Below are positions 38,499-40,910 of a stretch of DNA of 64,000 nt, piece after piece (the stretch's first letter is position 1; every line of letters starts with the position of its first letter). Under the pieces are notes generated by a model, which had not been told where the DNA came from, made no database searches, and saw only the letters and a program-made list of their open reading frames with translations. A program made the translations under genes and the position numbers. Origin of the DNA: a virus (lineage: Duplodnaviria > Caudoviricetes); IMG/VR virus record IMGVR_UViG_3300024259_001623. The stretch is one strand, 5' to 3'.

Positions 38499-39410
38499 TT
38501 AGACTCCTATCATAGATTGCTTGCGAGTCAATTCTCGCTTCTTATACTCTTCTATATCATAAAGCTCGTTACTTGGTAGTTTATCTACTAAAATACCACT
38601 ATGGGTGGTTACTAAAAATTGTTTATCGCTAAACACTTCTTTGATCTTATTAATCATGTTTAGATGTCTTTTGAAATATACATGCATTTCTATATTATCT
38701 ATCAATATAATATCAGAATTTGCCATCTGTTCTGGATTACATAAGTTTCTTAACAAAGTAGCTATTTTCTTTTCGCCAGCGCTCATCCTTTTGAAGTGAA
38801 CTTTAACATCACTATATTCTTTGTATAAAACAAAATTAGTGTAAAACAGTTCATCAGTTACATAATCTTCTGATTTTGTGCTATCGACCATTTCCCCTAA
38901 AGCGTTTACTTCATCTCTCAATTCACATTTATAACCCAAAATAACTTCGGCCATATCTAAAAACTTATCTTTCATCCCACATTGTAATTGAAAACTATTT
39001 ACGCTAATAGGTTTATCTACATCTATATAGTAAATAGAACCCCAAGGATTATCAGACAACTCATTAATTATTACACCGTCTTTAGAGGACAAAACAACTT
39101 TCTTTTCCTCTCCATCCTCATCAAATACTCCATGAAGAAAAAGAATCTCTTTGGGTTTATCAAATGCAGCGTAGGCGGGGTTATAATCTCTGTTAAAGAT
39201 TAATTTTCTAAACATGGTTTCGGTGTTAAATTTGTTGATTCTTTTAGCCATAGACAGAAAGTTTATGGCTGACAGGACTGTACTTTTACCGATGCCGTTT
39301 GGCCCATAAAAAGCACAGAAATTTTTGATACTTCCATTTTGAGTAAAATCAAAGGCCATATCCTCATAGCCACAATAATTTTCCATTCTTATTCGTTTTA
39401 TTTTAACCAT
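38499..39410 (-). CDS. compact ABC-type (AAA_21/SMC-like) ATPase
   Basis: IRMENYCGY, YGPNGIGKST (Walker A), MSAGEKK (signature), ILIDNIEMH (Walker B/D-loop), VTTHS (H-loop); no coiled coil. Confidence 0.85.
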   Translation of the reverse strand: MVKIKRIRMENYCGYEDMAFDFTQNGSIKNFCAFYGPNGIGKSTVLSAINFLSMAKRINKFNTETMFRKLIFNRDYNPAYAAFDKPKEILFLHGVFDEDGEEKKVVLSSKDGVIINELSDNPWGSIYYIDVDKPISVNSFQLQCGMKDKFLDMAEVILGYKCELRDEVNALGEMVDSTKSEDYVTDELFYTNFVLYKEYSDVKVHFKRMSAGEKKIATLLRNLCNPEQMANSDIILIDNIEMHVYFKRHLNMINKIKEVFSDKQFLVTTHSGILVDKLPSNELYDIEEYKKRELTRKQSMIGV

Positions 39411-39474
39411 TTACAATTCCTTCCAAAGATAATATCTTTACATATCTTTTCGTCACTTTGTCGATATTATAAAC

Positions 39475-39762
39475 ATGAAAAACTCAGTATCTAAAAATAA
39501 TATTGTCCAAGATAAAAAGACTTTCAAAAAGTCTGCCGGCAAATGCAGAATATGCGACAATGACAATTATAGTACTTTATCCGTTCATCGTATAAAGCCA
39601 GGATGCGAAGGTGGCAAATATACTGAAATGAACGTTGTTGTTTGTTGTGAGAACTGCCATAGAAGAATACATAATAAAGAAATAGAAATAGACAGATATT
39701 ATGATTCTACTGGTGGAACTCTTTTACGTATCGTAGAAGACGGTAAAGAAAAATTTGTTTAA
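39475..39762 (+). CDS. minimal HNH endonuclease (95 aa), antisense to the surrounding genes
   Basis: CRIC...VHRIKPGCEGGKYTEMNVVVCCENCHRRIH. Confidence 0.8.
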   Translation: MKNSVSKNNIVQDKKTFKKSAGKCRICDNDNYSTLSVHRIKPGCEGGKYTEMNVVVCCENCHRRIHNKEIEIDRYYDSTGGTLLRIVEDGKEKFV

Positions 39763-40031
39763 CGATTGTTGAATGGATAGCTTTATCGGGATCTTAGTTA
39801 CATGCGTCACCTACTGTCTGGCCAATAGACACATGGAATGGGGCCAACCGGATAAGCCTTCATTCTCTCCTGACCGACAGACGTAGCGGTGTTCTCTTTC
39901 GAGTCTTTATGCTCCCTCTACATCACCCGCATTAGCGATTTCAAGGTCATGTTACAGGCGTGTCTGCCCGCTGCTATCTCACCGCACTTCCTACCAGATA
40001 AACTCTGGCCGTTTTCAACAACCGTTAAACA
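39756..40031 (-). ncRNA. candidate structured non-coding RNA, unclassified (~276 nt)
   Basis: 18-bp closing stem (one G-U on the minus strand), about 50% GC (120 of 240 nt counted at 39781-40020) in an AT-rich genome, internal hairpins incl. CUC-GAAA-GAG, no ORF. Confidence 0.7.
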
Positions 40032-40264
40032 TTATTCTTTTTATCATTATTAAACAAAGACTGTATCAACTTTGGCCCCCACATAACCCCAGTTATAACA
40101 CAAGACAGAAATATAGTAAGTCTCACAGAAAAATTGCTTGTACCAATCCCCATTTCAGACATAATTTTTATCAATGCATCTACACTTTCTTGAAAAGAAA
40201 ACGCAAATACTGCTAACAAAAAACCTATGGCAAAATATATACCCAACAACCATATCCAAATCAT
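40025..40264 (-). CDS. small two-TM membrane protein
   Basis: Two hydrophobic helices; stop codon lies within the ncRNA 5' arm. Confidence 0.65.
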   Translation of the reverse strand: MIWIWLLGIYFAIGFLLAVFAFSFQESVDALIKIMSEMGIGTSNFSVRLTIFLSCVITGVMWGPKLIQSLFNNDKKNNV

Positions 40265-40265
40265 A

Positions 40266-40910
40266 TTAACTTCCTTTCATATCTTTGATTTTTTCTACAA
40301 GTTCATCAATAGTATTATCTACATCTAAGTCTCCATCCAACATTTGATATGCGCTAGGCCATAAAAAAGCCTCTCCACCCCATTCCTTAAAAGCATCAAC
40401 TTTCTTTTTAGAATCATCTATAAGAATAGAATCTTTATTTGCACAAAAATGTTTTGAATGCGTAACTATCATGGCAGGCTTTTCTTCTTGGTAATTATCA
40501 TAAATACATTCCATCTTACCTTTAGCTCCATCAGCAGCTACTTTTGGATGCTTAAAAAGATTACCATTAGAAGTTAAGAAAGATACTTCGCCCAGCTTAT
40601 TCATTGCATTGTATAACTTTTTGTACCAAGGGAACATTGACATATTCTTCCACCAGTCGCTACCGGCTTTTTCTATTGCCTTCCACATATCTTCTTCATT
40701 TGTATGCTTAGTATCTTCTAGCTTAGTACCAGACTTCAATTCATCTCTAAGTTCTTTTTCAGTATCATCTATTCCCAAGAGATCACAAGCAGCTTTCTCC
40801 CAATTGCTAACTACTCCATCCATATCTATAAAAATTCTGATCTTTTTATCTTTTTTCTCAGATAATATAATTTTGTCTGGTGAATTAATACTAATTCGAT
40901 TCTTTTCCAT
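40266..40910 (-). CDS. HAD-family 5'(3')-deoxyribonucleotidase-like protein
   Basis: IFIDMDGVV, FLTS, GK..C, ILIDDS. Confidence 0.85.
   Translation of the reverse strand: MEKNRISINSPDKIILSEKKDKKIRIFIDMDGVVSNWEKAACDLLGIDDTEKELRDELKSGTKLEDTKHTNEEDMWKAIEKAGSDWWKNMSMFPWYKKLYNAMNKLGEVSFLTSNGNLFKHPKVAADGAKGKMECIYDNYQEEKPAMIVTHSKHFCANKDSILIDDSKKKVDAFKEWGGEAFLWPSAYQMLDGDLDVDNTIDELVEKIKDMKGS

Follow-up and report, generated by a model that had tools for sequence, protein, structure and literature searches.

The locus and its neighbouring genes

The stretch of DNA analysed here (the window) comprises 64,000 nucleotides of a phage contig of 434,625 bp recovered from metagenomes of seawater. It is AT-rich, with a mean GC content of 33.6%, and almost all of its genes are encoded on the minus strand. 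Among the few exceptions is the gene for a minimal HNH nuclease of 95 amino acids (39475–39762, plus strand; Pfam HNH E 4e-5, with matches to PHROGs HNH families), which converges on the non-coding element that is the subject of this report. From the other side, the element is met by the gene for a hydrophobic membrane protein of 79 amino acids (40025–40264, minus strand), which is a real gene; an exhaustive protein search of 1.84 billion representatives yielded one homologue (55–58% identity, taking the search and an alignment together). The region is bracketed by a PtuA-like AAA_15/AAA_21 ATPase of 303 amino acids (38499–39410, minus strand), divergent from the HNH gene, and by an NT5C-like 5'-deoxynucleotidase (40266–40910, minus strand). 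A dCMP deaminase and a kinase-like P-loop protein also lie in the neighbourhood and, like the nucleotidase, belong to nucleotide metabolism. The best PADLOC matches of the ATPase were PtuA models (E 2.7e-21, partial coverage), while the HNH protein matched a type IV restriction model only and no PtuB model. In a scan of ten ORFs at 36.5–43.1 kb there was no match to the reverse-transcriptase families of Pfam and PHROGs, and no recombinase gene was found near the element using these two libraries.

The 95-residue HNH protein and the 303-residue PtuA-like ATPase are also neighbours in several distantly related phages (loci L024, L026, L028–L030 and L045). The pair is usually divergent and is co-oriented once, in L045; beside the HNH homologues of L015 and L031–L036 the ATPase is absent. 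Together, the two proteins are more reminiscent of a nuclease module of two genes than of a simple homing endonuclease.

An ORF-free, GC-rich element between convergent stop codons

The element is bounded by an inverted repeat with arms of 18 nt at 39756–39773 and 40014–40031. A preliminary description of this DNA had proposed that its ends form an 18-bp stem, and this is borne out: the arms are complementary at 17 of 18 positions, the sole mismatch being a G-U pair when read on the minus strand and an A-C on the plus. The arm pair ranks first among the inverted repeats of the window and is the only 18-nt repeat there with at most one mismatch and a spacing of 50–600 nt; of 40 dinucleotide-shuffled versions of the window, 2 contain an equivalent repeat. 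There is no longer repeat, as the local alignment score of the two halves, which would reveal an imperfect extension of the arms, falls below the shuffle mean. The first 7 nt of the left arm contain the HNH gene's final Val codon and its TAA stop; in the right arm, the last 7 nt contain the Val and stop codons of the membrane-protein gene in minus-strand reading. The two stops (39760–39762 and 40025–40027) thus occupy mirror positions within the arms, in line with the same description.

The arms enclose the highest GC island of the 64 kb, with a 150-nt peak of 0.53 against a mean of 0.336 (sd 0.052); the remaining GC peaks inspected in the window are coding. The core itself (39774–40013, 240 nt) is ORF-free and 50.4% GC, matching the interior of about 50% GC in AT-rich surroundings that had been noted before; its minus strand is rich in purines and in G (G 70, A 69, C 51, U 50). 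Stop codons occur in all six frames of the element and its ORF fragments have no Pfam match; recoding of TAG would open merely one junk-like frame. A micro-ORF of 18 codons, MKAYPVGPIPCVYWPDSR, lies inside the GC-rich core (39807–39863, minus strand) with an AGGAG upstream at a spacing of just 3 nt. It is too short for testing and is probably a chance occurrence.

In AT-rich genomes, stable RNA genes typically appear as GC-rich, ORF-free spots, and among the GC islands of the window the element alone is free of ORFs. The reading that we place first, tentatively and with less than even confidence, is that its minus strand carries an inserted RNA module whose defining feature is the long stem. 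Against this reading, no promoter-like site is present at the element, neither a sigma-70-like site nor the phage TCCCTGA motif, and neither its interior nor its ends carry a hairpin with a U tract that resembles an intrinsic terminator. U-rich tracts follow the stem on both strands.

Comparison with known RNA families and a search for further copies

The element was compared with the 4227 models of Rfam 15. These include group I and II introns, RNase P, tmRNA, SRP, 6S, Y RNA, HEARO and the small ribozymes. At the gathering score there were no matches in the whole window. A search of 39600–40200 returned four chance-level hits only; all of them leave the GC-rich core untouched, and one reaches into the right arm. 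At E ≤ 10 the interval 39745–40042 gave no match on either strand. The preliminary description had been unable to name a class for this RNA candidate and had put forward Rfam as the refuting test; that test was negative at both the gathering score and E ≤ 10, so the element is not a member of a known family. ARAGORN found no tRNA or tmRNA gene in the window. A group I intron likewise has no Rfam match here, and the element comes after both stop codons, leaving no exon beyond it on either strand.

Among described RNAs found near HNH-domain genes, the closest comparison is with HEARO and the omega RNA of IscB, which resemble the element in being non-coding and about 250–300 nt long, the structure here being only predicted. 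The element differs from them in its lack of an Rfam match, in its neighbour (a stand-alone HNH protein of 95 amino acids without RuvC or guide-binding parts) and in its placement, which is 3' of the HNH gene and convergent with it rather than 5' and co-oriented.

Further copies were sought at several levels. No second copy exists within the 64-kb window, and a blastn search with the element found no match in phage or plasmid records. BLAST, nhmmer and a covariance model of a 100-nt sub-domain found nothing in 38 related loci and five whole huge-phage records. Exact scanning of IMG/VR with two interior 18-mers and the two-repeat pattern returned nothing, and both terminal repeats at a spacing of 215–245 bp occurred neither in IMG/VR nor in 185,579 species genomes. 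A 20-mer had two matches in the species genomes, both of them chance matches inside coding regions of GC-rich genomes.

Related loci point to a lineage-specific insertion

HNH homologues provide a view of the junction in other phages. The family always ends in EKFV-stop, including in homologues without the element, so that part of the left arm is native HNH sequence. The element is absent after the HNH homologues of more than 20 loci (L015, L028–L036, L037–L044 and L045), several of which also carry the same ATPase family, and none of the compared HNH loci has a GC-rich gap 3' of the HNH gene. More distant HNH loci in a metagenome scan, among the matches listed, were all without it. The surrounding gene order varies: L027 and L046 have the ATPase gene immediately next to NT5C, L045 has only a co-oriented HNH gene between the two, and the HNH gene is divergent from the ATPase gene in L028–L030, where it is complete, and in L024 and L026, where HNH ends lie upstream of the ATPase. 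In L015, L031–L036 and L037–L044 the HNH gene has other surroundings. In L028–L030 the HNH gene and the gene converging on it overlap by four bases, TTAA.

The same arrangement can be reconstructed for the window. A proposed inserted segment of 262 bp (39763–40024, 49.6% GC) has terminal inverted repeats of 11 bp, CGATTGTTGAA on the left and its inverted copy CGGTTGTTGAA on the right, and is flanked on both sides by TTAA (39759–39762 and 40025–40028). Excising 39763–40024 together with one TTAA yields GTTTAAAC, in which both ORFs keep their stops in a 4-nt TTAA overlap, the same kind of HNH end as in L028–L030. The 18-bp stem would then decompose, on each side, into the 11-bp repeat of the insert (10/11), TTAA (or TA) and three more bases of a palindromic target. 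The absence of the element from related loci and this empty-site reconstruction make it well supported, from sequence comparison, that the element is a real, lineage-specific insertion rather than an obligate partner of the HNH protein or of the HNH–ATPase pair. The preliminary description had listed a partner of the HNH among its options; an obligate partnership is not supported. The ends look like an 11-bp terminal inverted repeat with a TA or TTAA target duplication; TTAA is itself palindromic, and a duplication of it is indistinguishable from an extension of the repeat.

One further sequence deserves mention. The spacer between the NT5C and HNH genes of L045 (1355–1403) contains a short palindrome, AATTGTT A AACAATT, which loosely resembles the arm sequence. 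We judge this likeness to be chance in AT-rich DNA.

Terminal inverted repeats with a possible target duplication are equally the signature of a transposon remnant, which counts against the RNA module as a reading of the ends. The element could instead be a MITE-like relic, a functionless non-autonomous DNA transposon or captured foreign fragment lodged in the TA or TTAA of overlapping stops, with the long stem merely a terminal inverted repeat plus a palindromic target. We regard this as doubtful, though a serious competitor; the preliminary description had named such a relic as its fallback. It gains support because the empty site reconstructs so cleanly: the 11-bp terminal repeats (10/11, or 17/18 over 18 bp when TTAA is included) have TTAA at each side, and the 262 bp between are of foreign composition and contain no ORF. 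MITEs are usually defined by terminal inverted repeats of at least 10–15 bp, target duplications of 2–10 bp and a size of 50–800 bp (PMC11602168), and the dimensions of the element fit. Several observations run the other way. Only one copy is present in the window, no element with both terminal repeats at the 215–245 bp spacing was found in IMG/VR or the 185,579 species genomes, phage and plasmid records hold no match, and no transposase was seen nearby. A GC content of 50% is odd for a transposon of an AT-rich phage–host pair, the palindromic TTAA leaves the target duplication ambiguous with repeat extension, and MITEs are rare in viruses, having been reported in 0.2% of 5170 (PMC11602168).

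Small mobile elements of this general kind are familiar from prokaryotes and their viruses, and MPMEs are ultra-small mobile elements of mycobacteriophages. The element shares with these elements, and with the viral MITEs surveyed in PMC11602168, a short ORF-free insert (262 bp), terminal inverted repeats of at least 11 bp, a possible target duplication of 2–4 bp, a seat in a phage intergenic junction and a reconstructable empty site. It differs from them in being known as a single copy, with no family members or transposase found and with a GC content far above that of its carrier genome.

The company of a PtuA-like ATPase and a small HNH protein also invites comparison with retrons. Retron type I-A, or Retron-Septu, consists of an msr-msd RNA with a1/a2 repeats, a reverse transcriptase, a PtuA ATPase and a PtuB HNH protein. 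The arms would in that case be a1/a2-type repeats of an msr-msd-like RNA working with the PtuA-like ATPase and the HNH protein. The resemblance consists of a non-coding element bounded by inverted repeats of 18 bp, a feature that is not retron-specific, beside an ATPase matching PtuA models (E 2.7e-21) and a small HNH gene. We consider a retron-like or Septu-associated partner very improbable: the ten ORFs scanned in 36.5–43.1 kb contain no reverse-transcriptase match, the HNH protein is not PtuB-like in PADLOC, and gene order and orientation are different. The absence of any Rfam match at E ≤ 10 means that none was obtained to any retron msr model in the library, and homologous HNH–ATPase pairs occur without the element in L028–L030 and L045, as do the HNH ends in L024 and L026.

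The closest relative and the phage population

The closest HNH homologue (P0122, 83% identical) lies on the same ENA contigs as the membrane-protein homologue (P0126), in assemblies ERZ23498360 (2230 nt) and ERZ23498365 (822 and 1392 nt). This relative has the same gene order, and 242 nt without a called gene separate the two stops, compared with 262 nt in the window. P0126 ends in ...LLLFGK, unlike the membrane protein of the window, so the right-hand boundary is not identical in the relative. The protein clusters of P0122 and P0126 have no other members, and the relative was not found in IMG/VR. That a gap of similar size persists although the HNH proteins are 83% and the membrane proteins 55% identical favours the RNA module and counts against a functionless relic, since the proteins have diverged by 17–45%. 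Keeping the gap at the same junction of a compact genome in a diverged relative argues for retention under selection, a view that we take from the comparison of these two phages.

Within the phage population the locus is uniform. Seven contigs with an identical membrane protein, drawn from different samples in ENA, JGI and Logan, agree with the window (100% identity) at every position of 39300–40500 that they include. Four of them span the whole element, and all seven have it in the same orientation. Contigs from four seawater runs contained no variant and no joints, low word shares reflecting patchy coverage only. The phage population is clonal at this locus.

Inverted repeats of this length flanking a segment of about 240 bp would also suit an inverton, a DNA segment flipping between its 18-bp repeats, and with both stops inside the repeats an inversion would keep both ORFs intact. 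The population data give us scarcely any reason to credit this, since the 7/7 contigs from different samples are identical and in one orientation and the contigs of the four runs contain no joints. Moreover, no recombinase gene lies nearby, and the flanking genes point into the segment, so that it offers no promoter to switch for them.

A 329-nt contig of another organism in one run (X14) matches the right arm and the tail of the membrane-protein gene (40013–40048) with 6 differences in 36 positions; the sequence preceding the matching part is unrelated and AT-richer. This contig may represent a third lineage with a different arrangement at the junction. A 22-mer taken from it had no matches in IMG/VR.

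Folding is dominated by the arms

Folding of the whole element gave −93 kcal/mol on the minus strand (z −3.9) and −75.8 kcal/mol on the plus strand (z −2.0). The minus-strand signal comes from the arms, as the 240-nt core alone lies close to its shuffles (z −0.82 minus, +0.68 plus). On the minus strand, 120-nt sliding windows within the element ranged from z +0.8 to −1.5, and parts of the adjoining ATPase gene gave stronger signals. The numbers of possible core stems of at least 5, 6 and 7 bp (103, 45 and 16) resemble those of shuffles (101, 35 and 12). These core values count against the RNA module and agree with a relic. The preliminary description had leaned chiefly on internal structure. 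All of the internal helices that it listed exist in the sequence, yet the stem counts and core stability are at chance level, as are the sliding windows, and the internal structure therefore cannot serve as the main evidence. The pseudoknots that it proposed carry no weight, because core stability and stem counts match those of shuffles. Ornate-looking internal 'helices' are what any sequence of this size and 50% GC yields.

Two local predictions on the minus strand may be recorded. The first is a four-way junction at 39886–39985, closed by a helix of 6 bp (GCGGUG/CACCGC) and containing three hairpins, of which one has a GAAA loop. In this 100-nt sub-domain the minimum free energy structure equals the centroid and z is −3.4 for limits that were picked after folding; the predicted junction is only a lead. 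The second is a predicted 6-bp hairpin, GCCAGA/UCUGGU (39993–40009), just inside the 5' arm.

The strongest local fold of the 1.8-kb region scanned lies elsewhere, in the 5' part of the ATPase gene (39180–39389), and is present on both strands, with z down to −4.7 on the plus and −4.3 on the minus strand in 120-nt windows. A terminator-like hairpin (39354–39371, minus strand) falls within it.

The arm duplex is predicted at −26.2 kcal/mol on the minus strand against −21.6 kcal/mol on the plus strand, and extends to about 24 bp when flanking pairs are included. This difference joins others in the same direction, namely the G-U pair in the arms, the excess of G over C (70 vs 51) and the whole-element z-scores (−3.9 vs −2.0). 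Such strand signals are weak, and the strand that they favour is that of nearly all neighbouring genes, as would suit an RNA module on the minus strand.

The arms could nevertheless pair in the transcript of either strand, which brings in a cis-acting role without any function in trans. The element might be a stable 3'-end structure common to both convergent units, protecting the mRNAs from exonucleases and limiting read-through and antisense transcription. Its exact position between the convergent stops, the U-rich tracts after the stem on both strands and the lack of a promoter of its own all agree with this, and a structure of that sort needs no specific fold, matching the chance-level interior. 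We nonetheless think it distinctly unlikely, given that the terminator-like hairpin with a U tract that one might look for is absent from the element and its ends, that other phages keep the HNH gene convergent in a 4-nt overlap without any such element, and that 240 nt of GC-rich sequence far exceed what a 3' stabiliser needs.

A possible route from insertion to a released RNA

The RNA module on the minus strand, which we continue to place first, can be put in terms of a putative pathway. A cassette of about 262 bp, ORF-free and GC-rich, would have inserted at the overlapping TTAA stops of the convergent HNH and membrane-protein genes, probably in an ancestor of the phage and its closest relative. 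It would most likely be carried in a putative minus-strand transcript running from the NT5C gene through the membrane-protein gene into the element. In this transcript the arms would pair into a helix of 18 bp, lengthened to about 24 bp (−26 kcal/mol) by flanking pairs, closing the G- and purine-rich core of about 240 nt.

Duplexes of about 18–24 bp are the kind of substrate that RNase III-type enzymes cut, and the arm duplex, at about 24 bp and −26 kcal/mol, fits a site for a double-strand-specific RNase. An enzyme of this type could cut the duplex and free a stable RNA of about 250 nt; the cleavage would also separate the upstream mRNA from the downstream part, and the released RNA might then act in trans. 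RNase III is known to cut long flanking helices to release stable RNAs, as in bacterial rRNA precursors, and also acts at sites in T7 early mRNA. The element resembles such excised RNAs in its predicted flanking helix of about 18–24 bp around a GC-rich core, its putative polycistronic transcript and the lack of its own promoter. Unlike theirs, its core belongs to no known RNA.

As a functional structured RNA the element is a candidate only. What can be described is a small insert bounded by inverted repeats that possibly carries an RNA and that falls in no described RNA family. A bolder version of the RNA reading would make it the founding member of an undescribed class of stable RNAs of about 250 nt in marine megaphages: a mobile RNA cassette that inserts at TTAA with its own closing helix, is excised from an operon transcript at the long stem and has a trans-acting role such as that of a decoy or regulator. 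We hold this version to be speculative and unlikely. The support for a new RNA class is composition and one stem.

Either of the two foremost readings would say something about the biology of these phages. Should the element be a transposon relic, it would be a rare case of a MITE-like insertion in a huge phage of lytic type and would show how an insertion into overlapping stop codons leaves both genes intact. Should it be an RNA, the megaphage would gain an unclassified RNA of about 250 nt, which would also point to small inverted-repeat cassettes as a form in which RNA genes can move.
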